From the NCBI RefSeq assembly GCF_036365525.1, contig NC_090421.1, forward strand, positions 1,747,982-1,811,981: 64,000 bases of DNA, written 5' to 3'. Below, piece after piece: positions 1,656 to 63,694 of this stretch. This DNA is from Heterodontus francisci (lineage: Eukaryota). The position numbers were made by a program, and so were the translations under genes. Positions within the stretch are counted from its first letter, which is position 1. Each line of letters begins with the position of its first letter. The notes beneath the pieces were generated by a model. The model was not told the origin of the DNA. It saw nothing but the letters and a program-made list of their open reading frames with translations, and did not search any database.

Positions 1656-1696
1656 AGAGTTCTGATGAAGGGTCATTGACCTGAAACGTTAACTCT
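1656..1696 (+). ncRNA. Minimal type I hammerhead ribozyme motif (Penelope-type)
   Basis: AGAGTT-CTGATGA-A-GGGTC/ATT/GACCT-GAAA-CGTT-AACTCT: conserved core, 6-bp stem I, 5-bp stem II, palindromic ACGT stem III. Confidence 0.7.
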
Positions 1697-1795
1697 TGTT
1701 TCTCTCTCCACAGATGCTGCCAGACCTGCTGAGTATTTCCAGCACTTTTTGTTTTTATTTCAGATTTCCAGCATCTGCAGTATTTTGCTTTTATT
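1656..1795 (+). mobile_element. Short non-autonomous Penelope-derived repeat (pLTR-like)
   Basis: Matches the 3' end of the GIY-YIG fragment at ~17020-17100 and the copies at 5347, 8988 and 45735. Confidence 0.7.
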
Positions 1796-8040: not shown

Positions 8041-8987
8041 CCTTGATAAGTCTTCATTTGAACATGGGAAAGATGCAGGGAGGAGGAAGTGCATAACAAG
8101 GCATTGAGATTAGAAGGAACCAGAGTGCAAAGTTTACAGCAGCATTGACTAAAGTCGTATCCCTACCCTCCAAGAATTTCGAGCAGGTTATTGCAATTAC
8201 TTACCCATCAATGAAGTCAGATCTAATTTTTCTCTCACCTTGAGCTGTGGTCACACTATCCCATTCTCTGGTGGACAAGAAGTCCATGAGGAGATCACAA
8301 CAAATACCATGACTAGCACTTTAAAAATATTCTCAGTGTTTAGACAGGATTCCCCATTGAGCTGTGTTTTTCCTAGGCTCATCAATATTCATGAGTATTT
8401 CTCTTTAATATGCATACCATGATGCTGACCTGCAAAACAGCTCATGAATATGCTGAGTAGTATACAGTGGCTGGAAATGGACAGAGAAAGAGTTGACAGA
8501 TGTTGCAATCAATTACAACCACTTGCATTGAGAAACAAGCAGTTTCATTAAACTCCAAAGATTGAAGGAAATGTAAATAAGTTAAACTGTAGCAAATTGT
8601 GACACATTTTCTGTGTGTGTCATTTTGTCCATGATACAAATGTTGAAATACCAACAAGGTCCTTAGGGGTCAGCATCACTATGCACATATTAAATCAGTT
8701 TGTGAATATTTGTAAGTATCAGTACGCTAGCCTCTCTCTCTCTCATCAGTTACTGAGATTTGTTTTAGAACGATAGAGGTTCCTGCTTCAAAACCAACTC
8801 TGGCCTCTTACACATCCCCAATTTTCATTGATGGTAGCTGTGCCTTCAACTGCCTGGGCCCTAAACCTCTTCCCTTTTAAGACACTCCTTAATACTTACC
8901 TCTTTGACTAAGCTTTTGGTCACTTTTCCTACTCGCTCCTTATGTGGCTTGGTGTCAAATTGCATTTGATAACGCTCCTTTTTTTCA

Positions 8988-9090
8988 TAATAAAAACAAG
9001 AAATGCTGGAAATACTCAGCAGGTCTGGCAGCATCTGTGGAGAGAGAAGCAGAGTTAACATTTCAGGTCAGTGCCCCTTCTTCAGAGCTC
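8988..9090 (-). mobile_element. Penelope-derived short repeat
   Basis: Reverse complement of the 1656-1760 type; CTGAAGA...GAAATGTTAACTC. Confidence 0.65.
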
Positions 9091-9480
9091 CTTTTTTATA
9101 TTCAGTCATGGGATGTGGGTGTTGCTGGCAAGGCCAGCATTTATTGGCCATCCCTAATTACCCTCGAGATAACTGAGTGGTTTGCTAGGTCATTTCAGAG
9201 AGCAGTTAAGAATCAACTACATTGCTGTGGATCTGGAGTCACTTGTCGGCCAGACCAGGTAAGGATGACAGATTTCCTTCCCTAAAAGGACATTAGAAAA
9301 TCAGATGGGTTTTTACAGTAATTTCATGGTCACCATGATTGATACTAGCTTTTTAATCCAGATTTTTATTTAATTAACTGAATTTAAATTCCCCAGTTGC
9401 CGTGGTGGGATTTGAACTCATGTCTCCAGATCTTTAGTCCAGGCTTCTGGATGATAGTCCAGTAATATTAGCACTATGCC
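9091..9480 (-). mobile_element. tRNA-derived SINE: head and body of the 31925-35192 LINE joined to its 3' tail
   Basis: 9171-9480 aligns with 34885-35192; 9091-9169 aligns with the LINE tail; B-box GAGTTCAAATCC. Confidence 0.85.
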
Positions 9481-11539
9481 TGTACCCTATACTGTACACT
9501 TCTGTAAAGCGCCTTAGAATGTTTTACTACAGTAAAGGCGCTGTATAAATGCAATTTACTGTTGAGGGAAAACTGCAGCAAGAGTGACAGTCTTTCTCTA
9601 CAATGGGCCACTCTCTCACAATCCTGGAAGAAACAACTTCGGCTGGTCATGGATGTGTGCCCGAGCAGTCAGATTAAGAATAGAACTGGCAGAGGCCTTT
9701 GAGCAGATTGCCAGCTCACTTTCTACTCTGTATGCTGGAGCAGAGGGAACCCAAAGAGTGGGACAGAGAAAAAAAAAATTGGCAGAGAAAATAATAGGCC
9801 ACTTTTGTACAAACAGCCCAAAGTGACCTCAGCTATATACAGCCTCAACCAGGTCTGCAAGTAGATAGGGAGAAAGTGTTTCCACTATTAGGAGAGTCGG
9901 TAACCAGAACACAGATTTAAGGTAACTACCAAAAAAGCCGGGGGGCGGTGGGGGATGAAGAATCTTTTTGAAAAAATGCAACGAGTTATGATCTGGAATG
10001 CATTGTCTGAAACAGCAGTGGAAGCAGATTCAATAGTAACTTTCAAAAGGGAATTGAATCTCAACTTAAAAAAAGAAAAACTTGCAGGGCTATGTGGAGA
10101 GTGGACTAATTGGATGGCTCTTTCAAAGAGTCAGCACAGGCACGATGGCTAAATGGTCTCCTTCTATACATCGTTTTAAGATAATCAGCACTGAATTCAC
10201 TGAGGTAGACCAGGGACTGGTGGAATTCTGTTAAAGTAGTCAGTGAAAATTGTAATTTATCTTGAGACAGGAATTTTCTTTACCTAGTAGATTCAAATAG
10301 GTCTCCAACATTGAAGGGGAGTAACAGTGCATCACTCCCAAATATGGACCACCTCACATACTTTGGGTGGGTACCAAATGATTCTGTAGCCCCCACAGTC
10401 TCAATAACTAAAAACAAAACTGCTGAGCTAACCTGTTTTTTCCTTCAAAATGAAGATCAAGAAAGTCAGTTGAGGCCCAAAGTGCAAAACACCAAGAGGA
10501 GAGAAATCAAGATGATGATTAAATGACACTAAAATTAGGTTTTAAAAAGCTGATAGATTAAGGGGAAAGAGAAGACCGAGTGAGGCGATCCACAATCCTG
10601 AAGTCATGGGAAGGGTGGAGAGAATAGGAAATGGTGCGACAAATCTTGATTTCAGCATGGTGAGGATGTAGGGAGGAGAAAGTGTGTAGGACAAGGCCTT
10701 TGAAGTTTAGAAGGGACAAAGTACTCTGTTGTAGCTCCATGGTCTGTGGTGTTTAATGACCATTTATTGGGTATATAGGTCTCTCCAACACCTATATAAT
10801 TCTTAACATGGCAAAGATCTGTCTACTGCCTGCTGAGCCTTCACACTCTTCATACCTGCTTTTGTGCTTTAAAACAGCAAAGCAGAGGCAACTTGGTAGC
10901 AGGCATTTTGTACTGAAAGCTTCCTGCAACCCAGATGAGAGGCTGCCTCATGTTTCCAAGAGCAAGTTGTTTTCCTCTTTTAAAGTAAAATCTAGAAAGG
11001 CTGTTCAATAGGTGAGGGGTACACAATGGAATTCACAGTCACCAATCCAATCTTAGGGTTCAAATGATCTTACATAGCATGAAAACAAAGCTCAAGCAGT
11101 TTGTCAAACAAACTTCAAGATCAGATTGTTGACTTGAATTCATGCATGGTATAACTGTCAGACATTAAATCTCATTTTATTTTCTTACTAGAGAATGTAG
11201 CCCATTTTATCTAGTGGATTCATTTTTTTTTAGTAGGTATCTGCATTAGAATGAAGTGCTGTATATATTGAACAGATTTACAATGTAGGATCTGAAGGTT
11301 CAGAGGACTGCATTAGAGCCTGCAATATTACTGTATCTTTTAACAGTAGCTTATTTTAACAGCAGCTTACAGGAAAATGTGTATCTTATGAAGAGAGCAC
11401 ATCTCCATAAGAGGTGTTAAGCACCTTGAAGACACAAAACACACATTGCATGAACCTCCATTGGACTGTAAGGTGGCGACATCTGTTGTGATGGCTGGGC
11501 CTTACGAAGTGGAAGTTTTTAGGCAGTTTACTAAGATAG

Positions 11540-15514: not shown

Positions 15515-15780
15515 TTTTTTTTAAATTATTCAATCCTGGGACGTGGGTGTTACTAGCTAGCCCAGCATTTATTGCCCAGCGCCAATTGCCCTCGAGAAGG
15601 TGGTGGTGAGCCACCTTTTTGAACCGCTGCAGACCTTGGGATGTAGGTACACCCAACAGTGCTGTAAGGAAGGGAGTTCCAGGATCTTGACCCAGTAACA
15701 GTGAAGGAATTCCCATGCATCTGCTGCCCTTGTCCTTCTAGGTAGTAGAGGTCACGGGTTTGGAAGCTGATGTCGAAGGA
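15515..15780 (-). mobile_element. 3' fragment of the same LINE family
   Basis: Matches the tail of 31925-35192, with an internal deletion. Confidence 0.75.
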
Positions 15781-16284: not shown

Positions 16285-17100
16285 GACCTCTGCCATTTCT
16301 GCCACCTCCAGCATGATGGCAAATACAGCTACCCTCCCCACTTCTGCATTCTGAAGGAACCATTCCCTCCATAACACTGTGGTCCACTTCTCAATCACCC
16401 TCTCCCCTTCCCACAGAAACTTTCCATGCAAGGACAGGAGATGCAACATCTACCCTTTCACCATCTCCCTTCTCACCATCCAGGGCCCCCAAATAATCCT
16501 TCTAGGTGAATGGCGATTTATTGTACTTTTCAATTTAGTATACTGTATTCAGTGCTCATGGTGCAGTCTCCTATACATTGGCGAGAGAAAACAGACTGGG
16601 TGAACACTTGGTGGAACACCTTGGTTCAGTCCACGATTGTGACTGAGCTTCCGGTTGTCAAGTAAATTCTCCACCCCATTTGCACTCAGCCTCCCACGCT
16701 GTTCCAATGAAGCTCAATGCAAGCTTGAGAAAGAGCACTTTATCTTCTGATTAGACACTTTACAGCCCTTCAGATTCAACATGGAGTTCAACAATTTCAG
16801 ATTATAATCTCTGTCCCCATTTACTTATTGAATGGCAGCTGTTGATTCTGCTGTTCCCATTTATGTCTCTAGACCCATTTTCTGTTTCTTTACTTGTCCC
16901 ATCACCCCTTGTTATTTAATCACTCCTGTCTTCAACTCTAACGCAGGCCTTCCTTTTTGTTCTTCACACATCACCACCTTTGTACTTGCTTAAAACCTGC
17001 TACATCTCTATCTTGTTCCAGTTCTGACAAAAGGTCATTGAGCTGAAACATTAATTTTGTTCCTCTTTCCACAGATGCTGCCTGACCTGTTGAGTATTTT
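16285..17100 (+). mobile_element. Penelope-like element 3' fragment (GIY-YIG endonuclease remnant plus terminal repeat)
   Basis: Remnant translation VYCIQCSWCSLLYIGE is the GIY-YIG/CxxC motif of Penelope-like elements; ends in a decayed hammerhead-bearing repeat. Confidence 0.7.
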
Positions 17101-21275: not shown

Positions 21276-21432
21276 AGATTAGATTAGATTAGATTAGATT
21301 AGAGATACAGCACTGAAACAGGCCCTTCGGCCCACCGAGTCTGTGCCGAACATCAACCACCCATTTATACTAATCCTACACTAATCCCATATTCTTACCA
21401 AACATCCCCACCTGTCCCTATATTTCCCTACC
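21276..21432 (-). mobile_element. 5'-truncated HE1-like V-SINE
   Basis: 3' half only, with (AGATT)5 tail on the + strand. Confidence 0.8.
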
Positions 21433-21885
21433 AGAGTTTTACATTTTATTGCATCACACCACCTGCTAGTTAGTTCACTGGGAAACAGTCACCAGTTTCA
21501 TATCACACATACTGGCAGTTTATGATCAAACATTTACTGTTTCAGTAAACCAAGCCACTGCAGCTATGTCACAAGATGGGGCAGGGAGGTGGGGGAGCGA
21601 AAGAAAATGCAATGCTGCAAGTTTAAAAAGAGAGGGGTAGTTAGGTGCTTGTAGACAAATGCTTTGGGCCAATTGAATTCTAAAATAAAATTGCTGTAAA
21701 AGATCAGAACAGGTAATAGCAGGATAATTCACACCTATGTGTGGCACACCAGACACAACTCACTATCACCATTTTACCAACCCCAATTACCTGTCCTTTT
21801 TTAAAATGTATGTGCTACCCTACCAAGAATTCATTTTTTGTTCTTTACCAGAGTAAACAAAACCCAGTGGTATCTTTTAACATAT

Positions 21886-22234
21886 GGGCGACACAGTGGC
21901 GCAGTGGTTAGCACCGCAGCCTCACAGCTCTAGCGACCTGGGTTCAAATCCAGGTACTGCCTGTGTGGAGTTTGCAAGTTCTCCCTGTGTCTGCGTGGGT
22001 TTCCTCTGGGTGCTCCGGTTTCCTCCCATATGCCAAAGACTTGCAGGTTGATAGGTAAATTGGCCATTAATAATTGCCCCTAGTATAGGTAGGTGGTAGG
22101 GAAATATAGGGACAGGTGGGGGATGTGTTAGGAATATGGGATTAGTGTAGGATTAGTATAAATGGGTGGCTGATGGTCGGCACAGACTCGGTGGGCCGAA
22201 GGGCCTGTTTCAGTGCTGTATCACTAAACTAAAC
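21886..22234 (+). mobile_element. HE1-like V-SINE, full length
   Basis: tRNA A/B boxes; V-domain (GTGGAGTTTGCAAGTTCTCCC...GCTCCGGTTTCCTCCCA); CR1-type tail; (CTAAA)n end. Confidence 0.85.
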
Positions 22235-24042: not shown

Positions 24043-24494
24043 CTGCAAGAAAAGCAAACACACATTAAAGTCAAAGTGGAGATCAGAATTGATTTAAGGC
24101 AGCAATATTCAGCTCGATGGGTAAATGTACTGTGGCATGGTACCAAGCCATAGAAATATGTGAAAAAGGGCAGTTGGGAAAGATTCCAGAGGGCTGAAAT
24201 TGTACTGCAGCCAAGAGTCATTAAAAAATTTACAATGAATGGGGGGAAAAACGCTTCTCATTATGTCCCAGCAGTTCATGTATTGCATAAAGTTACAATA
24301 CTTGCTGTGCACTCTGGGTAGCAAAAGAGTTAGAGAGCTTTATCAGCAATTCTTTGGCTAAACTGAGCAAAGTCATGATTGGTTGGAAAGTAATATACAG
24401 CAGTGTACCAAGAATTCAGGTAATTTACAGAGTCCTGTAGCTTAACAGGGCCAGAGAAAGAAAGCAGACGATGCGATACAACTGGGTTAGAATG

Positions 24495-24839
24495 ATTAGA
24501 TTAGATTAGATATACAGCACTGAAACAGGCCCTTCGGCCCACCGAGTCTGTGCCGAACATCAACCACCCATTTATACTAATCCTACACTAATCCCATATT
24601 CCTACCAAACATCCCCACCTGTCCCTATATTTCCCTACCACCTACCTATACTAGTGACAATTTATAATGGCCAATTTACCTACCAACCTGCAAGTCTTTT
24701 GGCTTGTGGGAGGAAACCGGAGCACCCGGAGAAAACCCACGCAGACACAGGGAGAACTTGCAAACTCCACACAGGCAGTACCCGGAATCGAACCCGGGTC
24801 CCTGGAGCTGTGAGGCTGCGGTGCTAACCATTGCGCCAC
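24495..24839 (-). mobile_element. HE1-like V-SINE
   Basis: Reverse complement of 21886-22234; (AATCT)n tail; possible GAATG target-site duplication. Confidence 0.85.
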
Positions 24840-31611: not shown

Positions 31612-31924
31612 CTGCAAGTTAAGAGTAAGCAGTCAGAATTTTTGAGTAGAAATTTGATACATTACAGTCAAACTAATTACTTCTCTCTGGTGATATGGGC
31701 AGAACAACTTTTAATCATGTCACCTTTAACATAGTAAAATGCCCCAAGGTGCTTCACAGGAGCGCCATCGAACAAATTTCAACACCAAGCCATATAAAGG
31801 AGATGAGGTTAAGTATCCAAAAGCTTGGTCAAAGAGGTAGACTTTAAGGATCATCTTAGAGGGACAGAGGCAGAGAGGTTCAAAGGTAGAATTCAAGAGC
31901 TTAGGACCCAGGCAACTGAAAGCA

Positions 31925-34900
31925 ATTTTTTTTTTTTTTAATTATTCATTCATGAGATGTGGGCGTCACTGGCTAGGCCAGCATTTATTGCCCATCCCTA
32001 ATTTCCCTTGAAGGTGGTGGTGAGCTGCCTTCTTGAAACACTGCAGTCCATTTGGGGTAGGTATACCCACAGTGCTGTTAGGGAGTTCCAGGATTTTGAC
32101 CCAGCAACAATGAAGGAACGGTGATATAGTCCCAAGTCAGGATGGTGTGTGACTTGGAGGGGAACTTGCAGGTGGTGGTGTTCCCATGCATCTGCTGCCC
32201 TTGTCCTTCTAGATGATAGAGGTCACTGGTTTGGAAGGTGCTGTCTAAGGAGCCTTGGTGCGTTGCTACAAAGCATCTTGTAGATGGTACACACTGCTGC
32301 CACTGTGCGTCGGTGGTGGAGGGAGTGAATGTTTGTAGATGGGGTGCCAATTAAGCAGGCTGCTTTGTCCTGGATAGTGTTGAGCTTCTCGAGCATTGTT
32401 GGAGCTGCACCCATCCAGGCAAGTGGAGAGTATTCCATCCCTCTCTTGACTTGTGCCTTGTAGATGGTGGACAGACTTTGGGGGGAGTCCAGAGGAGAGT
32501 TACTCGCCGCAGGATTCCTAGCCTCTGAACTGTTCTTGTAGCCACGATATTTACATGGCTACTCCAGTTCAGTTTCTGGTCAATGGTAGCCCCTAGGATG
32601 TTGATAGTGGGGGAATTCAGCGATGGAAATGCCGTTGAATGTCATGAGGAGATGGTTAGATTCTCTCTTGTTGGAGATGGTCATTGCCTGGCACTTGTGT
32701 GGCGCGAATATTACTTGCCACTTATCAACCCAAGCCTGGGTTTTGTCCAGGTCTTGCTGCATTTCTACACGGACTGCTTCAGTATCTGAGGAGTCATGAA
32801 TGGCGCTGAACACTGTGCAATCATCAGCGAACATCCCCACTTCTGACCTTATGATTGAAGGAAGGTCATTGATGAAGCAGCTGAAGATGGTTGGGCCTAG
32901 CACACTACCCTGAGGAACTCCTGCAGTGATGTTCTGGAGCTCAAATGATTGACCTCCAACAACCACAACCATCTTCCTTTGCGCTAGGTATGACTCCAGC
33001 CAGCAGAGGGTTTTCCCCGATTCCCATTGACCTCAGTTTTGCCAGCGCTCCCTGATGCCATACTCGGTCAAATTGCTGCCTTGATGTCAAGGGCAGTCAC
33101 TCTCACCTCTGGAGTTCAGCTCTTTTGTCCATGTTTGGACTAAGGCTGTAAATGAGGTCAGGAGCTGAGTTGCCCTGGCGGAACCCAAACTGAGCGTCAC
33201 TGAGCAGGTTATTGCTAAGCGAGTGCCACTTGATGCACTGTTGATGACACCTTCCATCACTTTACTGATGAATGGTAGGCTGATGGGGCGGTAATTGGCC
33301 GGGTTGGACTTGTCCTGCTTTTTGTGAACAGGACATACCTGGGCAATTTTCCACATTGCCGGGTACATGCCAGTGTTGTAGCTGTACTGGAACAGCTTGG
33401 CCAGGGGCACGGCCAGTTCTGGAGCACAGGTCTTCAGTACTACTGCCGGAATATTGTCAGGGCCCATAGCCTTTGCAGTATTCAGTGCCTTCAGTTGTTT
33501 CTTGATATCACGCAGAGTGAATCGAATTGGCTGAAGTCTGGCATCTGTGATGCTGGGGACTTCAAAGGAGGCCGGGATGGATCATCAACTCGGCACTTCT
33601 GGCTGAAGATGGTTGCAAATGCTTCTGCCTTATCTTTCGCACTGATGTGCTGGGCTCCCCCATCATTGAGGATGGGGATATTTGTGGAGCCACTGCCTCC
33701 AGTTAGTTGTTTAATTGTCCACCACCATTCACGGCTGGATGTGGCAGGACTGCAGAGCTTCGATCTGATCTGTTGGTTATGGGATCGCTTAGCTCTGTCT
33801 ATCGCATGTTGCTTACGCAGTTTGGCACGCATGTAGTCCTGGGTTGTAGCTTCACCAGATTGACACCTCATTTTGAGGTATGCCTGGTGCTGCTCCTGGC
33901 ATGCACTCCTGCACTCTTCATTGAACCAGGGTTGGTCTCCTGGCTTGATGGTAATGGTAGAGTGGGGAATATGCCAGGCCATGAGGTTACAGACTGTGGT
34001 TGAGTACAATTCTGCTGCTGCTGAAGGCCCACAGTGCCTCATGGATGCCCAGTTTTGCATTGCTAGATCTGTTCGAAATCTATCCCATTTAGCATGGTGG
34101 TAGTGCCACACAACACGATGGAGGGTATCCTCAATGTGAAGGCGGGACCTCGTCTCCACAAGGACTGTGCGGTGGTCATTCCTACCAATACAGTCATGGA
34201 CAGACCCATCTGCGGCAAGCAGATTGGATGAGGACGAGGTTGAATAGGTTTTACCCTCTTGTTGGTTCCCTCACCACCTGCCGCAGACCCAGTCTAGCAG
34301 CTGTGTCCTTTAGGAATCAGCCAGCTCGGTCAGTAGTGGTACTACTGAGCCACTCTTGGTGATGGACTTTGAAGTCCCCCACCGAGTACATTCTGCACCT
34401 TTGCCACCCTCAGTGCTTCCTCCAAGTGCTGTTCAACATGGAAAAGTACTGACTCATCTGCTGAGGGAGGGTGTAGGTGGTAACCAGCAGGAGGCTGCCT
34501 TGCCCATGTTTGACCTGATGCCACAAAACTTCATGGGGTCCGGAGTCGATGTTGAGGACTCCCAGGGCAACTCCCTCCCGACTGTATACCACTCTGCCGT
34601 CACCTCTGCTGGGTCTATCCTGCCGGTGGGACAGGACATACCGGGGGATGGTGATGGCAGTGTCTGGGACATTGTCTGTAATGTATGATTCTGTGAGTAC
34701 GACTGTCAGGCTGTTGCTTGACTAGTCTGTGGGACAGCTCTCCCAACTTTGGCACAAGCCCCCAGAAGTTAGCAAGGAGGACTTTCCAGGGTCGACAGGG
34801 CTGGGTCTGCCGTTGCCTAGGTCGATGCCGGGTGGTCCGTCCGGTTTCATTCTTTTTTTATTGACTTTGTAGCGGTTAAATACAACTGAGTGGCTTGCTA

Positions 34901-35192
34901 AGCCATTTCAGAGGGCATGTAAGAGTCAACTACATTGTTGTGGGTCTGCAGTCGCATGTAGGCCAGACCAGGTAAGGACAGCAGATTTCCTTCCCGAAAG
35001 GACATGAGTGAACCAGATGGGTTTTTACAACAATCGACAATGGTTTCATGGCCATCATTAGACTAGCTTTGAATTCCAGATTTATTAATTGAATTCAAAT
35101 TCCACCTTCTACTGCGGTGGGATTCGAACCCATGGCCTCAGACCAATACCCTGGGTCTCTGGGTTACCAGTCCAGTGACAATACCACTACGC
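31925..35192 (-). mobile_element. Near full-length CR1/L2-group LINE with tRNA-derived head, APE and RT (frameshifted)
   Basis: ORF pieces with PWFNEEC, NYRPISL, GVPQGSVLGP, FADD; B-box GGTTCGAATCC at 35130-35120; A-rich tail; inserted into an L2 remnant. Confidence 0.9.
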
Positions 35193-35793
35193 ATGGCCAC
35201 CAATGGTGCAGCGATGGAAATTGGGGATATGCAAGAGGCCAGAACTTGAGCAGTGTGACGATAACTTGAATTTACATGGCGTCTTTAACACAGTAATGCC
35301 TCACAAGGCACTTCACAGAAGGGTTAACAAAATTTTGACACAGCCACGGAGGGCTGTAGGAAGTTAGAGGTAGGGAAGGGAGAGGCCATGGAGGGATTTG
35401 AAAACAAGGACAAACGATTTTAAAATAGAGGCTTTGCCGGCCCAATTTTAAATATAGATATATCAAGACTGTGAAACACTTACATCAAAAAACCTTTAAT
35501 TATGTACCAAGTTTGAGGGCCCAATTTAGGTTGGAGTTTGCATTGTTGCATATAGTTGACTCCATTTCTAGTGCACAGATTGGAAGCCATTTTAAACCAT
35601 GGACAACACATTCTGAAACTCTGCAGTGTCAAATTATTTTACAAACTAGTGACATCATTCATGACTATGCTGGATTTTATGTGAACACATCCAAGTTTGG
35701 GAAAAAATGTTGACAACTGCTCAAATTATGATTAGACTGACAGAAACAGATGGGAGTTTGGATGGTACTTAGCTTTCTGAAAAAAAAACTTAC

Positions 35794-36861: not shown

Positions 36862-37809
36862 CTATTTTGGAAAAAATAAAAACTGTAAGATTCTCAAAAT
36901 GTATACACAAGACTGAAATAGTACTGTGGGATCGACCACAAATCTCACTCGAACTTGGCTTGTTCAGGATAACCATTTTTTAAAAAGGCAGTCGATCTTT
37001 GCATCAATACTGCCACCTTCTGGACAGGATTTAATTCAGATACTTGGAACAAGGTTGAAAAGATTGGAAAAAGCGAAGCTCAGAGTTGATCTGTGATCAG
37101 TACTTTTCTCAGACAATTGAAGATTCATTTTTAAAAAAACATGAACTTCAGAAATTTGACGACAAAATATTTGCCTGTCCAGGATGGGTCACTAGTCAAA
37201 CTGCCGAGGCATGCATCGCCTTCAACAATCAAGGTTATTCAATGGCCTGTGACCTAGTCTCTGAATTTGGGATTGGTTTCCTGATTGACAGTTTTATTGC
37301 AGCACAGTGTTCATTGTGTCAATTGTAGTCAAAGACAGCACTGAACTGCAATTAATCCAGACCTAAATTTTGGAAATCGGTTTCCTCTTACGCTCTGCAG
37401 TTTTCCTCCTCATCACAGCTGAGTCACACAGATTTGGTTTTCACCAAAACATCCATGCATAAAATTTCCAGGAGTCACTGGACAGCACTCAGGAAATTTT
37501 CTCTTCTCGAAGATATAGGACAAGGAGTAGGCCATTTAGCCCCTCAAGCCTAATCTGCCATTCAATCAGATAATGGCTAATCTGTGAGCCAACTCCATAT
37601 TTTGCCCCGTAGCCCTCGATACCTTTAGTTAACAAAAACCTCACAAATTAATTGATCTATCAATTCTTGTTTGAAGACTAACAAACTTCTACCACTGTGG
37701 AGGTGTTGCCTAATTTCACTCCTGAAAGTCTAAAATTTGGAGCCAGACCCAAGTCTCCTCGTCTTAGACTTACCAACCAGCAGAAATAGTTTTTTTTTTA
37801 AAAAAAGTT

Positions 37810-38226
37810 ACTTAATGGGATGTGGGCATCACTGGCTAGGCCAGCATTTACTGCCCATTCCTAACTGCCCTTGAGAAAGTGGTGGTGAGCTGCCTTCTTG
37901 AACCGCTGCAGTCCATTTGGGGTAGGTACACCCACAGTGCTGTTAGGAAGGGAGTTCCAGGATTTCGACCCAGCGACAGTGAAGGAACGGCCGATATAGT
38001 TCCCAGTCAGGATGGTGTGTGACTTGGAGGAGAACTTGCAGGTGGTGGTGTTCCCATGCATCTGCTGCCCTTGTCCTTCTAGGTGATAGAGGTTGCAGGT
38101 TCGGAAGGTGTTGTCCAAGGAGCCTTGGTGAGTTATTGCAGTGCACCTTGTAGATGGGTACACACTGCCGTCACTGTGCATCGGTGGTGAAGGGAATGAA
38201 TGTTGAAGGTGGTGAATGGGGTGCCA
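37810..38226 (-). mobile_element. 3' fragment of the same LINE family
   Basis: Matches 31940-32350; inserted within a CR1 remnant. Confidence 0.8.
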
Positions 38227-38927: not shown

Positions 38928-41753
38928 TACGAAGTCAATAAAAAGGAATGAAAGCGGACGGACCACCCGGCATCGACCTAGGCACCGGAAACGACAACGG
39001 CAAACCCAGCCCTGTCGACCCTGCAAAGTCCTCCTTACTAACATCTGGGCGCTTGTGCCAAAGTTGGGAGAGCTGTCCCACAGACTAGTCAAGCAACAGC
39101 CTGACATAGTCATACTCACGAATCATACCTTACAGATAATGTCCCAGACACTGCAATCACTATCCCTAGGTATGTCCTGTCCCACCGGCAGGACAGACCC
39201 AGCAGAGGTGGCGGGACAGTGGTCTACAGTAGGGAGGGAGTTGCCCTGCGAGTCCTCAACATCGATTCCGGACCCCATGAAGTCTCATGGCATCAGGTCA
39301 AACATGGGCAAGGTAACCTCCTACTGATTACCACTTACTGCCCTCCCTCAGCTGATGACTCAGTACTCCTCAATGTTGAACACCACTTGGAGGAAGCACT
39401 GAGGGTGGCAAGGGCACAAAATGTACTCTGGGAGGGGGACTTCAATGTCCATCACCAAGAGTGGCTCAGTAGCACCACTACTGACCGAGCTGGCCGAGGA
39501 CATCGCTGCTAGACTGGGTCTGGGGCAGGTGGTGGGGGAACCAACACGAGGGAAAAACATACTTGACCTCGTCCTCACCAATCTGCCTGCTGCAGATGCT
39601 TCTGTCCATGACAGTATTGGTAGGAGTGACCACCGCACAGTCCTTGTGGAGACGAGGTCCCGCCTTCACATTGAGGATACCGTCCATCGTGTTGTGTGGC
39701 ACTATCACCATGCTAAATGGGATAGATTTTGAACAGATCCAGCAATGCAAAACTGGGCATCCATGAGGCGCTATGGGCCATCAGAAGCGGAATTATACTC
39801 AACCACAATCTGTAACCTCATGGCCCGGCATACCCCCACTCTACCATTACCATCAAGCCAGAAGACCAACCCTGGTTCAATGAAGAGTGCAGGAGGGCAT
39901 GCCAGGAGCACACCTCAAAATGAGGTGTCAACCTGGTGAAGCTACATCACAGGACTATCTGTGTGCCAAACTGCATAAGTAGCATGCGATAGAGCTAAGC
40001 GATCCCATAACCAACAGATCAGATCTAAGCTCTGCAGTCCGTGACTGGTGGTGGACAATTAAACAACTAACTGGAGGAGGTGGCTCCACCAATATCCCCA
40101 TCCTCAATGATGGGGGAGCCCAGCACATCAGTGCGAAAGATAAGGCAGAAGCATTTGCAACAATCTTCAGCCAGAAGTGCCGAGTTGATGATCCATCTCT
40201 GCCTCCTCCTGAAGTCCCCAGCATCACAGATGCCAGACTTCAGCCAATTCGATTCACTCTGCGTGATATCAAGAAACTACTGAAGGCACTGGGACCGCAA
40301 AAGCTATGGGCCCTGACAAAATTCCAGCAATAGTACTGAAGACCTGTGCTCCAGAACTTGCAGCGCCCCTAGCCAAGCTGTTCCAGTACAGCTACAACAC
40401 TGGCATCTACCCAGCAATGTGGAAAATTGCCCAGGTATGTCCTGTACACAAAAAGCAGGACAAGTCCAACCCGGCCAATTACCGCCCCATCAGCCTACTC
40501 TCAATCATCAGCAAAGTGATGGAAGGTGTCATCAACAGTGCCATCAAGCGGCACTTGCTTAGCAATAACCTGCTCAGTGACGCTCAGTTTGGGTTCCGCC
40601 AGGGCCACTCAGCTCCTGACCTCATTACAGACTTGGTTCAAACATGGACAAAAGGGCTGAACTCCAGAGGTGAGGTGAGAGTGACTGCCCTTGACATCAA
40701 GGCAGCATTTGACCGAGTATGGCATCAAGGAGCCCTAGCAAAACTGAGGTCATCACTGCAGGAGTTCCTCAGGGTAGTGTCCTAGGCCCAACCATCTTCA
40801 GCTGCTTCATCAATGACCTTCCTTCAATCATAAGGTCAGAAGTGGGGATGTTCACTGATGATTGCACAATGTTCAGCACCATTCGTGACTCCTCAGATAC
40901 TGAAGCAGTCAGTGTAGAAATGCAGCAAGACAATGACAATATCCAGACTTGGGCTAGTAAGTGGCAAGTAACATTCGCGCCACACAAGTGCCAGGCAATG
41001 ACCATCTCCAACAAGAGAGAATCTAACCATCTCCCCTTGACATTCAACAGCATTACCATCGCTGAATCCCCCCACTATCAACATCCTAGGGGCTACCATT
41101 GACCAGAAACTGAACTGGAGTAGCCATATAAATACCGTGGCTACAAGAGCAGGTCAGAGGCTAGGAATCCTGAGGCAAATAACTCACCTCCTGACTCCCC
41201 AAAGCCTGTCCACCATCTACAAGGCACAAGTCAGGAGTGTGATGGAATACTCTCCACTTGCCTGGATGGGTGCAGCTCCAACAACATTCAAGAAGCTCGA
41301 CACCATCCAGGACAATGCAGCCCGCTTGATTGGCACCCCATCTACAAACATTCACTCCCTCCACCGACGCACAGTAGCAGCAGTGTGTACCATCTACAAG
41401 ATGCACTGCAGCAATGCACCAAGGCTCCTTAGACAGCACCTTCCAAACCCGCGACCTCTACCACCTAGAAGGAACAAGGGCAGCAAATACATGGGAACAC
41501 CACCACCTGCAAGTTCCCCTCCAAGTCACACATCATCCTGACTTGGAACTATATCACCGTTCCTTCACTGTCGCTGGGTCAAAATCCTGGAATTCCTTTC
41601 CTAACAGCACTGTGGGCATACCTACCCCAAATGGACTGCAGCGGTTCAAGAAGGCAGCTCACCACCACCACCTTCTCAAGGGCAATTAGGGATGGCCAAT
41701 AAATGTTGGCCTGGCCAGCTTCGCCCACATCCCATGAATGAATAAAAAAAAAA
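38928..41753 (+). mobile_element. Second copy of the same APE-RT LINE, lacking the head
   Basis: PDIVILT, GDFN, QFGFR, DIKAAFD, GVPQGS, FTDD motifs; tail ...CCCACATCCCATGAATGAATAAAA; inverted relative to 31925-35192. Confidence 0.9.
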
Positions 41754-45151: not shown

Positions 45152-47236
45152 CTCATCAGAGTTATACAGCACAGAAACAGGCCCTTCGGCCCACCATGTC
45201 CGCGCTGGCCATCAAGCCCATTTATTGTAATCCCATTTTCCAGCACTTGGCCCATAGCCTTGTATGCTATGGCGTTTCAAGTGCTCATCTGGAAACTTGT
45301 TAAATGTTGTGAGGGTTCCTGCCTCTACCACCCCTTCAGGCAGTGTGTTCCAGATTTCAATCACCCTCTAGGTGAAAATTCTTTTCCTCAAATCCCCTCT
45401 AAACCTCCTGCCCCTTAACTTAAATCTATGCCCCCTGGTTACCATCATCTCCGCTAAGAGAAAAAGTCTCTTCCCATCTATCCCATCAATGCCCCTCAAT
45501 TTCGTATACCTCAATCAGGTCCCCCCTCAGCCTTCTCTGCTCGAAGGAAAACAACCCTAGCCTATCCAGTCTCTCTTCATAGCTGAAATGCTCCAGCCCA
45601 GGCAACATCCTGGTAAATCTTCTCTGCACCCTCTCCAGTGCAATCACATCCTTCCTATAGTGTGGTGACCAGAACTGTACACAGTACTCCAGCTGTGGCC
45701 TAACTAGCGTTTTTATACAGCTCCATCATAACCTAAAATAAAAGCAAAATACTGCGGATGCTGGAAATCTGAAATAAAAACAAGAAATGCTGGAACCACT
45801 CAGCAGGTCTGGCAGCATCTGTGGAAAGAGAAGCAGAGTTAACATTTCGGGTCAGTGACCCTTCTTCGGGTCTATGCCTCGGCTAATAAAGGCAAGTATC
45901 CCATATGCCTTCCTAACCACCTTATCTACCTGTGCTGCTGCCTTCAGTGATCTATGGACAAGTACACCAAGGTCCCTCTGTACTTCCTCGGGTCCTACCA
46001 TCCATTGTATATTCCCTTGCCTTGTTACTCCTCCCAAAATGCAACACCTCACACTTCTCAGGATTAAATTCAATTTGCCACTGCTCTGCCCATCTTACCA
46101 GCCCATCTAGATCATCCTGTAATCCAAGGCTTTCCTCCTCACTATTTACGACATCACCAATTTTCATGTCATCTGTGAACTTACTGATCATACCTCCTAT
46201 ATTCACGTCTAAATCATTAATGTACATTACAAACAGCAAGGGTCCCCGCACCGATCCCTGTGGTGCACCACTGGTCACAGGCTTCCAATTGCAAAAACAA
46301 CCCTCGACCATCACCCTCTGCCTCCTGCCACTAAGCCAATTTTGGATCAAGTTTGCCAAATTGCCCTGAATCCCATGGGCTCTTGCCTTCTTAACCAATC
46401 TCCCATGCGGGACCTGATCAAAAACCTTACTGAAGTCCATGTAGACTACATCAACTGCTTTAAACATCTAATCACCTCCTCTGAAAATTCAATCAAATTT
46501 GTTAGACAAGATCTCCCCCTGACAAAGCCATGCTGACTATCCCTGATTAATCCCTGCCTCTCCAAGTGGAGATTAATCCTGTCCCTCAGAATTTTTTCCA
46601 ATAGTTTCCCTACCACTGATGTTAGACTCACTGGCCTGTAATTACCTGGTTTATCCCTACTACCCTTCTTGAATAATGGTACCTCTCCTGTGGCCAGAGA
46701 GGATGTGAAAATTTGCATCAGAGCCCCTGCAATCTCCTCCCTTGCCTCACATAGCAGCCTGGGATACAACTCATCTGGGCCTGGGGATTTATCCACTTTT
46801 AAGCCCACTAAAACTGCTAATACCTCCTCCCTTTCAATGCTAATATGTTGAAGTATATCACAATCCCCCTTCCTGATCTCTACACTTACATCGTCCTTCT
46901 CCATAGTGAACACAGATGAAAAGTAATCATTCAAAACCTCACCTATGTCCTCTGGCTCCACACACAGATTGCCACTTTGGTCCTTAATGGGCCCTACTCT
47001 TACCCTGGTTATCCTCTTGCCTTACGATTTTCCTTTGTCTTGCCCGCCAGTATTATTTCATGCCCCCTCTTCGCTCTCCTAATTACTTTTTTTTTTTTTA
47101 AGTACCCCCCTACACTTTCTATACTCCTCTAGGGCCTCCGCTGTTTTCAGCCCTCTGAATCTGCCTTAGCCTCCTTTTTTTCCCCCCTTATCCAATCCTC
47201 TATATCCCTTGACATCCAGGGTTCCCTGGGCTTATT
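45152..47236 (-). mobile_element. CR1 LINE (ORF2 RT region)
   Basis: KSPGPD, NYRPVSLTS, QHGF, DFSKVFD, KFTDD; its 3' tail matches the V-SINE tail. Confidence 0.9.
45735..45870 (-). mobile_element. Penelope-derived short repeat nested in a CR1
   Basis: CCGAAGA-A-GGGTCACTGACCC-GAAATGTTAACTCT...; interrupts CR1 ORF2 sequence. Confidence 0.75.
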
Positions 47237-48351: not shown

Positions 48352-49088
48352 GCGCTCCGACGAGGTGCCGCCGCCGGCACCCAGCGTTTAGCGCTCCGAC
48401 GAGGTGCCGCCGCCGGCACCCAGCGTTTAGCGCTCCGACGAGGTGCCGCCGCCGGCACCCAGCGTTTAGCGCTCCGACGAGGTGCCGCCGCCGGCACCCA
48501 GCGTTTAGCGCTCCGACGAGGTGCCGCCGCCGGCACCCAGCGTTTAGCGCTCCAACGATCTGCCACCGGCACCCAGCGTTTAGCGCTCCAACGATCTGCC
48601 GCCGGCACCCAGCGTTTAGCGCTCCGACGAGGTGCCGCCGCCGGCACCCAGCATTTAGCGCTCCGACGAGGTGCCGCCGCCGGCACCCAGCGTTTAGCGC
48701 TCCAACGATCTGCCACCGGCACCCAGCGTTTAGCGCTCCGACGATCTGCCGCCGGCACCCAGCGTTTAGCGTTCCGACGATCTGCCGCCGGCACCCAGCG
48801 TTTAGCGCTCCGACGATCTGCCGCCGGCACCCAGCGTTTAGCGCTCCGACGATCTGCCGCCGGCACCCAGCGTTTAGCGCTCCGACGATCTGCCGCCGGC
48901 ACCCAGCGTTTAGCGCTCCGACGATCTGCCGCCGGCACCCAGTGCTTAGCACTCCGACAATCTGCCGCCGGCACCCAGTGCTTAGCGCTCAGACGAGGTG
49001 CCGCCGCCGGCACCCAGCGTTTAGCACTCCGACAATCTGCCGCCAGCACCCAGCGTTTAGCGCTCCGACGATCTGCCGCCAGTGCCTA
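48352..49088. repeat. GC-rich minisatellite, 39/36-bp units, ~20 copies
   Basis: Unit GCGCTCCGACGAGGTGCCGCCGCCGGCACCCAGCGTTTA (39 bp) and a 36-bp variant. Confidence 0.97.
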
Positions 49089-51106: not shown

Positions 51107-51438
51107 GTTTTAGTTTTAGAGATACAGCACTGAAACAGGCCCTTCGGCCCACCGAGTCTGTGCCGACCATCAACCACCCATATATACTAATCCCATATTC
51201 CTACCACATCCCCACCTGTCCCTATATTTCCCTACCACCTACCTATACTAGGGGCAATTTATAATGGCCAATTTACCTACCAACCTGCAAGTCTTTTGGC
51301 TTGTGGGAGGAAACCGGAGCACCCGGAGGAAACCCACACAGGCACAGAGAGAACTTGCAAACTCCACACAGGCAGTACCCAGAATTGAACCCGGGTCGCT
51401 GGAGCTGTGAGGCTGCGGTGCTAACCACTGCGCCGCCC
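51107..51438 (-). mobile_element. HE1-like V-SINE
   Basis: Same family; (CTAAAA)n tail. Confidence 0.85.
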
Positions 51439-55004: not shown

Positions 55005-55778
55005 CGGAATGCCTCATCACCAGAACTTTCAAACAAGCACCAAGATGTAGCTTGGCTGGTGGTGAGAAGAGCCCTCCCCGTCAGATCCTTCCTGCATGCC
55101 CGAAGTCTCGCCCCCTCCACACAATGCCCCCGCGGTGGCTGTGGTGGGGAAGAGACGGTCGCCCACCTCCTCCTGGAATGTGACTTTGAAAAGCAGGTGT
55201 GGAAGGAGATGCAGTGGTTTTTGTCGAGGTTCATCCCAAGCAGCTCTGTAACACAGGAGTCTGTGCTCTACGGGCTGTTCCCAGGGACGCAGACCGAGAC
55301 AAACATCAACTGCTGCTGGAGGACTATCAATTCGGTCAAAGACGCCCTTTGGTCTGCTCGAAACTTGCTGGTCTTCCAGCGAAAAGAGTTGTCAACCACC
55401 GAATGTTGCAGACTGGCACATTCCAAGGTCCAGGACTACGTGCTGAGGGACGCACAAAAGCTTGGGGCAGCCGCAGCAAAGGCTCAATGGGGAAAGACCA
55501 CAGTGTAAGGTCCCCCCACCAAGCTGAACTGAGGGGCTGGATCCATGGGAAACCCCTCCAACTGTATCGGGAAAATTTCTGTCTCCTGTATAATGTAAAA
55601 ATGTATCTGGCAGGACAAATGTGAAATGGAAGGGTTGTGAGGCAACTCATAATTGTATAGAAGGAAACTGATCACCTTTGCACTGTTTGTATTTTTTGAC
55701 TTGATGCTGTTTTAAACTGTTTGGGGAATGTAATTTTTTACAGATTTTTATGAATAAAGTATATTTTGGAAAAAAAAA
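55005..55778 (+). mobile_element. Tx1/L1-clade LINE 3' fragment, copy 1
   Basis: zf-RVT-like CPRGGCGGEETVAHLLLEC; AATAAA and A-tail. Confidence 0.85.
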
Positions 55779-55786
55779 CCTGGTAA

Positions 55787-56242
55787 CTGCTGGAGGACCA
55801 TCAATTCGGTGAAAGACGCCCTTTGGTCTGCCCGAAACTTGCTGGTCTTCCAGCGCAAAGAGTTGTCCACGACCGAATGTTGCAGACTGGCACATTCCAA
55901 GGTCCAGGACTACGTGCTGAGGGACGCACTAAAGCTTGGGGCAGCCGCAGCAAAGGCTCAATGGGGAAAGACCACTGTGTAAGGTCTTCCCGCCATAGTG
56001 AACCAAGGGGCTGGATCCATGGGAAACCCCTCGAACTGTATTGGGAAAATTTTCATTTGCTGTAAAATGTACATGGCATAAGAAATGAAATGGAAGGGTT
56101 GTGAGGCAACTCACTCCTGTATTGAAGGAAACTGACCTCCTTTGCACTGTTTGTAATTTTTGACTTGGTGCTGTTTGGAACTGTTTTGTCATGTATTTTT
56201 TACAGATTTTTATGAATAAAGTATATTTTGGAAATAAAAAAA
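55787..56242 (+). mobile_element. Tx1/L1-clade LINE 3' fragment, copy 2
   Basis: Highly similar to 55313-55778; own AATAAA and A-tail. Confidence 0.85.
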
Positions 56243-61471: not shown

Positions 61472-62209
61472 TTCCCAGTCTGTATTGCTCAGTAACACCT
61501 GTGCAGCATAGTTAGCCACTAAATCCTGGGGAGAGTTAAATCCTTGCGAAATTTTTAAATTAAACTGGCCAATCAGATCAAAGACTACAGCAACTTGCAT
61601 GCGAACACAATGGCGAAATGTTATGTCAAAAAGTTGGGTTACGCATTCAGATCTGCTCAAAGAATCACTTGGGGAGTATCCTGTCCTGGCAGAACTCTGT
61701 AAGTCAGCACAAAGCAATACTGAATTTCAAGAGACACTGATGTGATTAGAACTATTTGCTTGTGTGGAGGGTAAACACTGACATGGATTGCTTCGGCCGA
61801 ATGCCCTGTTTCTGTGTTGTAACTTCTATGATCTTAACTTCAACCAGAAGATGCATGTTTTATCAATGAACCTGACAACAAGCCTTGTGAAATTACGATA
61901 TGCACCTCCGTCTGCTGGAAGAATGAGTGTTGTAGGATCAATCATGTTTGAATGCAATACGACTTCAGTGATAAGCACAGGTTAAAATTCAACATTCCCA
62001 CACAATGACTTCCTGATTTCAGACATCATTATGGGGAGATGGCAAACAGAGCTCTTGTTTGTTGTAACAGAAAAATTCCAGGTTCAGTGCTGAATTAGCT
62101 GATCTCAGCTGTGGCAATAGTAAGGGATGCTACAATTGCCCTCATTAAGTTTCCATTTTTTTATGGAGGGGCCTTGATGATGAGACAACTTCTTTAAGGG
62201 TCAAACTCG

Positions 62210-62670
62210 CACCCGTTCACCCAGTATCCCTGTGCTCGCTGACGTACATTGGCTCCTGGTCCAAATAATGCCTCAGTTTTAAAATTCTCATCCTTGTGTT
62301 CAAATCCCTCCACGGCTTCACCCTTCCTTATCTCTGTAATCTCCTCCAGCCCCACAACCCTCCTCCAAATCTATGCTCCTCTGACTCTGGTCTCTTTTGA
62401 ACCCCCATACTTACTTTGCCCCACCCACTGTCAGCCCTGCCTTCAACTGTGTAAGTCCTAAGCTCTGGAATTTCCTCCCTAAAACTCTCTGCCTCTCCTC
62501 CTTTAACATGTTCCTTAAAATCTACCTCTTTGATCAAACTTTTAGTCACCTGTCCTTACATCACCATCTTTGACTTGGTGCCAATTTTTGTTTGACGATG
62601 CTCCTGTTAAGCACCTTGGGATGTTTTATTACATTAAAAAGGGCTATATAAATACAAGTTGTTGTTGTTG
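62210..62670 (+). mobile_element. L2 LINE 3' remnant
   Basis: Degenerate L2 C-terminus and tail ...GCTATATAAATACAAGTTGTTGTTG. Confidence 0.65.
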
Positions 62671-63694
62671 AAAGTCAAATTAATATGATGTTGGGTAACA
62701 CAATGCACTTTATCACTGCAAGTTAATGATATTGGCAATAAAACAATGCACCAGGAGGTCAAAACTCACTGAGCAAGTTTCATCCATATACCAAAAATAT
62801 CCTTAGATTATGAGCAAGCCTAGGAATTGTGAAACTCAGAACAAATCCAATGGTTTTCTCGGCCTCAGAAGCTTGTCAGTCCAACTACTGGAGTCAAGAT
62901 AATCAGAGGGAGCAAAGAGAATATATTTAACCACTAGCATGCTATACATGTGTTTACTTTGGGGGATGTGCTTGTCTTTCCAAGTCACCAAGGAGTGTCC
63001 CAGGCATCTCTTTCTATTTTCATGCTGAAAAATTTGTCAATGATTGACATGGCCTTATCTTGTCACATGGCAATAATCTAAGAAATGGTCCAATTAAACT
63101 GAAAGATTTTAAAAATAAAACAACCTATGTCCGATTTCAATAGAACAAAAGGGAAACTTAGACCACAATGTTGTTGATTAGATACACTATTTCCTGCAGT
63201 GCCCACCAGTTGCAGAAGGGACTCCTGCCATTGACATCTTTATTATATTGCCTGAGACCCAACAGCCATATTTTCACAGGTCTCAAAAGGTGTTGCCAAG
63301 TCTCCAGCTAAAGCTAAAAGTGCAAAGCTGGATCTATTTCAGGAATGGGAATCAAGAGTCTCTGGCCTTTTGATAGACCAATACGAGTTACACTGAGTTG
63401 CTTTGGTGTCACCAAACAAAACACAGCACAAGTGATCACATGGTCCAATCAAACTAAAAGAAGCTCAATATAAGCATAGGGAAACTTCCCAACTAAATCT
63501 GAATGTTGTTCCCAGTGTCTATAGGAACATTTTATATCCTGCAGTGTCCTTTGATTGCAAAAGGCCTCAAGCATACTGGCAAACACTGCATGCTCCCTCT
63601 CCAAGAATCTGGGCATAGTAAGTACCATGGAAGACAGGCAGGCAGCCAGGACAAAGCCCTGGAGCCACAGCTGGAAATAAATGGGAGAACTCAG

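Follow-up and report, generated by a model that had tools for sequence, protein, structure and literature searches.

A tRNA-like head on a CR1-type LINE of Heterodontus francisci and a short element made of the two ends of such a LINE

The window, by which we mean the whole 64,000-nt stretch of Heterodontus francisci DNA analysed here, contains an autonomous LINE with a tRNA-like head and a SINE-like element that consists of the 5' and 3' ends of such a LINE. The pair suggests that a tRNA-headed LINE may give birth to short repeats in one step, by removal of its middle. We lean towards an order of events in which the LINE gained a tRNA- or SINE-type head before internal deletions turned it into SINEs that were complete from the start.

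RESULTS

The short element joins the two ends of the LINE

The short, non-autonomous element lies at 9092..9482 on the minus strand and is ~390 nt long. It consists of a tRNA-like head (9400..9482, minus), a body (9171..9399, minus), a LINE 3' tail with a nested stem-loop (9092..9169, minus) and a short poly(A). Its partner, LINE copy 1 (31932..35195, minus; 3.26 kb), is nearly full length and bears both the tRNA-like head (35110..35192, minus) and a frameshifted single ORF, and sequence alignment placed the part of its 5' region common to the SINE body at 34884..35109 (minus). By blastn, SINE positions 9171-9482 matched 34884-35195 of this copy with 74.4% identity over 324 columns (E 8e-54); counted by part, 57/82 positions were identical in the tRNA-like segment and 65/79 and 115/136 in the body. 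The match ends at CCACTCAGTT (SINE 9180-9171, LINE 34893-34884). A single unmatched base, 9170, follows, and the SINE continues with its tail (9169-9092), which is identical to the LINE 3' end at 59/68 positions in copy 1 and 62/70 in copy 2 (87-89%). The earlier note had described a ~390-bp SINE in which the LINE 5' end is joined directly to the last ~80 nt of the LINE, and this holds, as a ~310-nt and a ~78-nt match; with the body matching as well, the similarity on the 5' side is not limited to generic tRNA boxes. Both ends of the element are homologous to one LINE and the ORF is missing, as in a SIDE of the Persaeus type, and the 3' tail in common with a partner LINE and the terminal poly(A) are those of a SINE2.

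The tail folded with a z of -2.0 in the SINE copy and more weakly in the LINE copies. Two LINE 3' fragments in the window also match it, one assigned to the same LINE subfamily by sequence match (37790..38204, minus; 51/62 identical) and one from a more distant relative that shares the tail and reaches 69% upstream of it (15515..15780, minus; 58/70). A special pairing of the SINE with the latter was rejected, given the tails of the two LINE copies. A protein search with the SINE body's own reading frame gave no match. At the end of the SINE poly(A), a ~100-nt repeat (8986-9086) has been inserted with an 11-nt duplication (8974-8984 and 9087-9097), and three further copies of it occur in the window (1657-1759, 17020-17099 and 45737-45867). 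This repeat has a CTGA..GA...GAAA motif, which we take to be like the hammerhead core of Penelope-type terminal repeats; Rfam made no hammerhead call.

The LINE fits the CR1-Zenon group

Full-length relatives (930-1050 aa) used in tblastn aligned to LINE copy 1 from the endonuclease to near the tail. Together with an RVT_1 match they define a broken single ORF, AP endonuclease first and reverse transcriptase after it, at 32079..34785 (minus). LINE copy 2 (38928..41753, plus), on which Exo_endo_phos_2 was also matched, is 5'-truncated 13 nt downstream of the junction at which the shared 5' region gives way to LINE-only sequence and has a 98-nt internal deletion; 2596 of 2804 columns (92.6%) are identical between the copies. 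A length of ~3.3 kb and one ORF with AP endonuclease and reverse transcriptase agree with a CR1-Zenon-type LINE (lengths of Zenon LINEs for comparison stand in Table 1 of PMC6740152, in its accessible part). The best protein matches came from Mobula, Heptranchias and Scyliorhinus and then from Branchiostoma and insects. In a quick tree of 118 rows and 149 columns, the reverse transcriptase piece fell into a 79-row clade (SH-aLRT 98) with proteins of Colias, beetles, cephalopods and Branchiostoma, and apart from the window's other CR1 relic. This placement fits the CR1-Zenon group, by a tree in which no row is labelled Zenon; a group of that name has been listed for the whale shark genome (10.1101/443036, accessible part).

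In neither LINE copy does the endonuclease frame have an AUG after its last upstream stop. An AUG-led frame of 42-46 codons runs across the start of the endonuclease in a different reading frame, in copy 1 (34722-34906, minus) as in copy 2 (38942-39088, plus). Another AUG lies within the shared body and is followed by a stop in the window and by Gln in two whale shark gene models, P0121 and P0148; if this is the true start, the SINE contains the first codons of the ORF, as in Persaeus. The LINE 5' region folded no better than shuffles (z -0.38), and we therefore claim no ribozyme or IRES structure for it. Several predicted gene models of sharks and rays (P0001, P0011, P0057, P0122 and P0148), among them models named anoctamin-7-like and cystathionine beta-synthase-like, incorporate pieces of the LINE, by exonisation or annotation error. 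DNA pattern scans of metagenome and viral contigs returned 0 matches, and protein-led scans of the same two collections returned no relative. GTDB representative symbiont MAGs hold many animal LINE contigs with intact ORFs of 950-1200 codons (for example in the records JBEVXV01 and JBEVVR01), which are host contamination.

Head and LINE are a single insertion

The head and the LINE of copy 1 form one insertion and are not two neighbours. Head and LINE body adjoin with no intervening tail, poly(A) or duplication, and the flanks of head plus LINE are two collinear halves of one older repeat. An uninterrupted copy of that host repeat at 62200-62680 is identical to the flanks at 26/39 and 25/38 positions and leaves no host gap, which is why we read head and LINE as one insertion; the 3-nt TGC stands at both of its edges. 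An independent adjacent insertion of the head with a duplication of its own, which the earlier note had considered, is thus at odds with the flanks. The SINE (flanks 8780-8980 and 9499-9564) and LINE copy 1 (flanks 31703-31919 and 35191-35435) sit at different positions within the same older repeat, which has at least five copies in the window and which is presumably an L2-type 3' region.

Only one of the two long LINE copies in the window shows the head, and copy 1 is the sole head-bearing LINE copy that was read as continuous DNA. With a single continuous example, and with copy 2 starting headless 13 nt from the junction, copy 1 might be a one-off chimera, made when the reverse transcriptase switched from LINE RNA to SINE RNA in a family that has no head. 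Data from outside the window speak against this. We surveyed the contigs of four of 24 listed runs, from four organisms (one, X1, may be the window's own source, leaving three). In the four runs, the distance to the contig ends from position 34878, 6 nt to the LINE-only side of the junction, was 49, 60, 55 and 31 nt, figures that do not by themselves state that both contig sides align. We also examined 33 close proteins, namely P0122 and the 32 that reached 50% identity in a list of 150 matches. In three of them, all whale shark gene models, a head-region peptide precedes the endonuclease: P0121 and P0148 continue past the junction into residues of the LINE side, and P0123 begins with body peptide ahead of the endonuclease. 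Another 29, which begin within the ORF or have been spliced to exons of the host, are uninformative on the head. The head-peptide scores of the three models were 25.8, 25.4 and 18.1 bits, reached by 0, 0 and 3 of 200 control stretches. A head match in P0162 (24.3 bits) was rejected, its peptide coming from the middle of the ORF. Because the scores are small and P0162 attained such a score falsely, it is the order and position of the peptides, not the score, that carry weight.

The short form recurs with several junctions

Contigs of all four runs, and thus of all four organisms, contained a short join between LINE tail and body, and in each run several contigs did so, as expected of a SINE2 amplified as a family of its own. 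The joins given here come from the best 15 rows of a list with 13,084 more. The join 32010->34884 was found in 8, 9, 8 and 6 contigs per run (shorter side 35, 34, 30 and 41 nt; 2-nt overlap), 32011->34884 in 9, 5, 5 and 3, and 32003->34884 in 12, 13, 14 and 0. A 2-nt deletion in the reference copy may account for part of this spread of junctions over 32003-32011. A distinct join, 32035->34879 (8, 8, 8 and 1 contigs; 2-nt overlap), keeps five LINE-only bases on its 5' side and includes an extra 24 nt of the LINE 3' end, and therefore points to deletion from a head-bearing LINE, in more than one event. Mapping the junction microhomology, as the earlier note had proposed, gave a divided answer: several of the joins listed have overlaps of 1-2 nt, and the window's own SINE copy has one unmatched base.

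The chimera reading is thereby largely refuted and in our judgement very improbable: P0121 and P0148 cross the same junction as copy 1, contigs of four runs continue for 31-60 nt to each side of 34878, and junction variants contain LINE-only bases. The structure of head and LINE is a family trait across elasmobranchs, in whose data the SINE/LINE family is abundant.

The head carries Pol III-type boxes and appears to be an acquisition of the shark lineage

The SINE head has an A-box-like motif from 9475 and a B box ending at 9408; the head of LINE copy 1 has an A-box-like motif from 35188 and a B box at 35130-35120 within a T-arm-like hairpin. The two boxes are at tRNA-like spacing in both. A combined A+B pattern, fitted to the window's heads, had three matches in the 64-kb window vs 0.01 expected, namely the SINE head, the LINE head and the head of one V-type SINE. 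A 5'-terminal pair of internal A and B boxes for Pol III is a feature of a SINE2, whereas a SIDE of the Persaeus type has neither a small-RNA head nor a Pol III promoter. ARAGORN and an Rfam covariance search of the heads, which are decayed copies, made no tRNA call; there was only a match of the T-arm to tmRNA (E 0.23). Head, body and nested repeat gave no meaningful Rfam family, and the heads folded no better than shuffles (z -0.06 and 0.22). What the earlier note called a tRNA head is thus borne out by its A and B boxes and not by a tRNA call from either program.

Several young V-type SINE copies occur in the window (21896-22232, plus; 24487-24839, minus; 51109-51434, minus; 21279-21433; 45160-45241), 90-97% alike and with intact A/B boxes, which we take to be HE1-like V-SINEs. 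They share only the box motifs with the SINE at 9092-9482, which had no blastn match to them or to other CR1 relics and so falls outside HE1 V-SINE/HER1, defined by a V domain and an HER1-type tail. Other repeats of the window include a GC-rich 36-nt tandem array at 48352-49080 (19.6 copies, 93% matches, open in several frames) and an L1/Tx1-like 3' end with a zf-RVT domain at 55005-56240, the last ~470 nt of which are tandemly duplicated (88%).

We also looked for the boxes in 75 invertebrate LINE relatives, present as host contamination in MAGs, 39 of which cover the endonuclease start together with no less than 500 nt ahead of it. An A+B pair occurred upstream in 0 of these 39 by the strict pattern and in 1 by the relaxed one; the 39 come mostly from few contaminated MAGs and few hosts and are not independent, and both patterns had been derived from heads in the window. 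ARAGORN with a relaxed cut-off made 142 scattered calls on the 75 loci, which we discarded as noise. Because the strict pair is missing from these relatives and Persaeus has no Pol III promoter, the LINE seems to have acquired its head within the shark lineage.

T-runs are scarce on the LINE sense strand

A run of at least four T ends transcription by Pol III. On the LINE sense strand there are two T4 runs in copy 1 and one in copy 2, none in common. Over 2781 columns, the two copies have 0 runs of at least four T in common vs 2.6 expected (p 0.06) and 4 of at least three T vs 14.2 (p 0.0003). The observed/expected ratio of TT was 0.81 and 0.72 in the LINE copies vs 1.18-1.27 in three other LINE relics, a fourth relic having 0.85, and runs of at least four T occur 3-8 times per kb in the window's other CR1 relics. 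In codon shuffling, copy 2 had 5 runs of at least three T vs 12.8 (0/300), below all 70 relatives tested (0.70-1.27), and copy 1 had 11 vs 14.9 (p 0.10); runs of at least four T were not significant in either copy. A dinucleotide-preserving test of T4 runs, which removes the TT deficit itself, was also not significant, and Phe TTT:TTC was not lower than other T/C-ending pairs (p 0.21 and 0.23). Four T-poor relatives likewise have 0-2 T4 runs. The closest relative fetched (L002 1-3099; 51% in the reverse transcriptase piece) is T-poor with one T4 run in 2.9 kb; its contig starts at the ORF, the 5' end being outside the contig.

The scarcity of T-runs is compatible with Pol III transcription and is not proof of it. 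That the full LINE itself is transcribed by Pol III seems to us possible, at a little under an even chance. The element may instead be an ordinary Pol II-driven SIDE like Persaeus, in which the A/B boxes survive as passengers at the LINE 5' end and Pol III does not transcribe the full LINE. This accords with the failure of the head to match a tRNA model or to fold better than shuffles, with the ordinary use of Phe TTT, the p value of copy 1 and the few T4 runs of the T-poor relatives, and with the lack of a cap to be expected on a 3-kb coding transcript made by Pol III. Against it, both boxes are kept at tRNA-like spacing in both partners, the LINE copies have no run of four T and few of three T in common, copy 2 is depleted under codon shuffling and the window's other CR1 relics have more T4 runs; we hold it to be a little less than an even bet.

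Order of events

The SINE head and body are ~80% identical to LINE copy 1 in aligned columns, compared with 92.6% between the LINE copies, and the SINE carries indels of its own relative to copy 1. Its head is 70% identical to that of the LINE and its tail 87-89%, and CpG observed/expected is 0.19 vs 0.33, lower in the SINE; a lower CpG ratio and a more diverged head are expected if the SINE is the older partner. The identities led us to reject the window SINE as a deletion of these particular LINE copies; it appears, by its divergence, to be an older or sister subfamily, presumably of the deletion derivatives. The comparison of divergence that the earlier note had proposed, made here within the window, thus finds the SINE copy older than the LINE copies and does not prove the direction of change.

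The same facts can be read with the SINE first: along the lines of the Okada/Kojima bipartite model, a tRNA head and either a body of its own or a LINE 5' UTR would have been joined to the LINE tail. A template switch or recombination would later have brought the SINE's head and body onto the LINE, while the SINE simply lived on. The relatives lack the head, so it had to come from outside; the window SINE looks older than the LINE copies; the box motifs resemble those of the window's V-type SINE heads; and module exchange among SINEs is documented (PMC5786205 and PMC7245038, accessible parts). Joins with LINE-only bases and a longer LINE 3' part, present in all four runs, would however arise more easily by deletion of a head-bearing LINE, a point that is itself compatible with capture as the first step. 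We regard the SINE-first order as unlikely.

For the order that we prefer, head gain followed by deletion, the observed starting point is that elasmobranch single-ORF CR1/Zenon-type LINEs carry a tRNA-like, Pol III-type head as their regular 5' end. The head would have been gained in the LINE lineage from a tRNA or a tRNA-type SINE. The ORF would then have been removed more than once, as the several junctions suggest, by internal deletions at short overlaps that end just past the shared 5' region and at the last 80-105 nt of the LINE. The ~390-nt product would keep promoter and 3' stem-loop and, by established SINE/LINE biology, could be mobilised in trans by the LINE protein through the shared stem-loop. 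Where the earlier note offered either deletion of the ORF or capture of the promoter, it was right in kind; the evidence suggests both, capture and then deletion, although the direction is not proven. Capture first is indicated by the 0/39 relatives with an A+B pair and by Persaeus, deletion by the several junctions and their LINE-only bases.

DISCUSSION

The closest known system is the lepidopteran pair of the SIDE Persaeus and the Zenon CR1 LINE. As described in the accessible part of PMC6740152, the LINE is likewise a ~3.3-kb member of the CR1 group and the derivative consists of its 5' and 3' ends, with a length of 270-390 nt and variable breakpoints at microhomologies. The same source gives Persaeus no tRNA similarity and no Pol III promoter, whereas both partners here have A/B boxes; the host here is a vertebrate. 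The reverse transcriptases appear related, by a tree with no row labelled Zenon. Bipartite LINE-derived SINEs (Bov-tA, AfroSINE, Mar-1, SINE2-1_ACar and hagfish SINE2-9/10) also combine a tRNA head with a LINE 5' part and a LINE 3' end (PMC5786205 and PMC7245038, accessible parts). There, it is the deleted element that receives the head and the LINE has none, whereas here the LINE itself bears it, and the bodies reported in the accessible part of PMC5786205 come only from RTE and Vingi 5' regions, in contrast to the CR1-type LINE found here. That source mentions in passing RTE-1_DAn and relatives, which are, like the LINE here, autonomous LINEs with a tRNA-like sequence matching many SINE2s; they belong to the RTE clade, and the passage gives no position, function or paired SINE. 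The known shark pairs, HE1 (V-SINE)/HER1 and SacSINE1 and CmiSINEs/L2-2_CM, similarly have tRNA-type heads, LINE-derived tails and the same hosts, but in the accessible parts of PMC3747384 and PMC5499810 the 3' tail is the only part that SINE and LINE are described to have in common, whereas the SINE here shares head and body as well.

The comparison also drew on the accessible parts of PMC6685494, PMC11481361 and PMC13295347. Our literature search found no description of this SINE/LINE pair or of a tRNA-headed CR1-type LINE; most subscription papers, Repbase, Dfam and the supplements of PMC5499810 lay outside its scope and may list them. What is new relative to a SIDE and to bipartite SINEs is an autonomous LINE that itself bears the Pol III-type head.

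On the usual view, a SINE forms when a small-RNA head becomes fused to a LINE tail, and the origin of SINE bodies is still under discussion. The LINE described here combines all three parts in one autonomous element, and the SINE body is literally the LINE 5' region, which extends LINE-derived SINE bodies beyond the RTE and Vingi clades. Because head, body and tail are already in one LINE, a SINE can arise from it by one deletion. The fullest picture, in which a 3.3-kb LINE with a captured head, purged of T-runs and translated without a normal cap or in-frame AUG, would be transcribed end to end by Pol III and would repeatedly spawn SINEs across sharks and rays, is doubtful as a whole. If the LINE does use its head as a promoter, it would be a rare natural case of a protein-coding Pol III transcript, with the absence of T-runs and cap-independent translation as its testable consequences.
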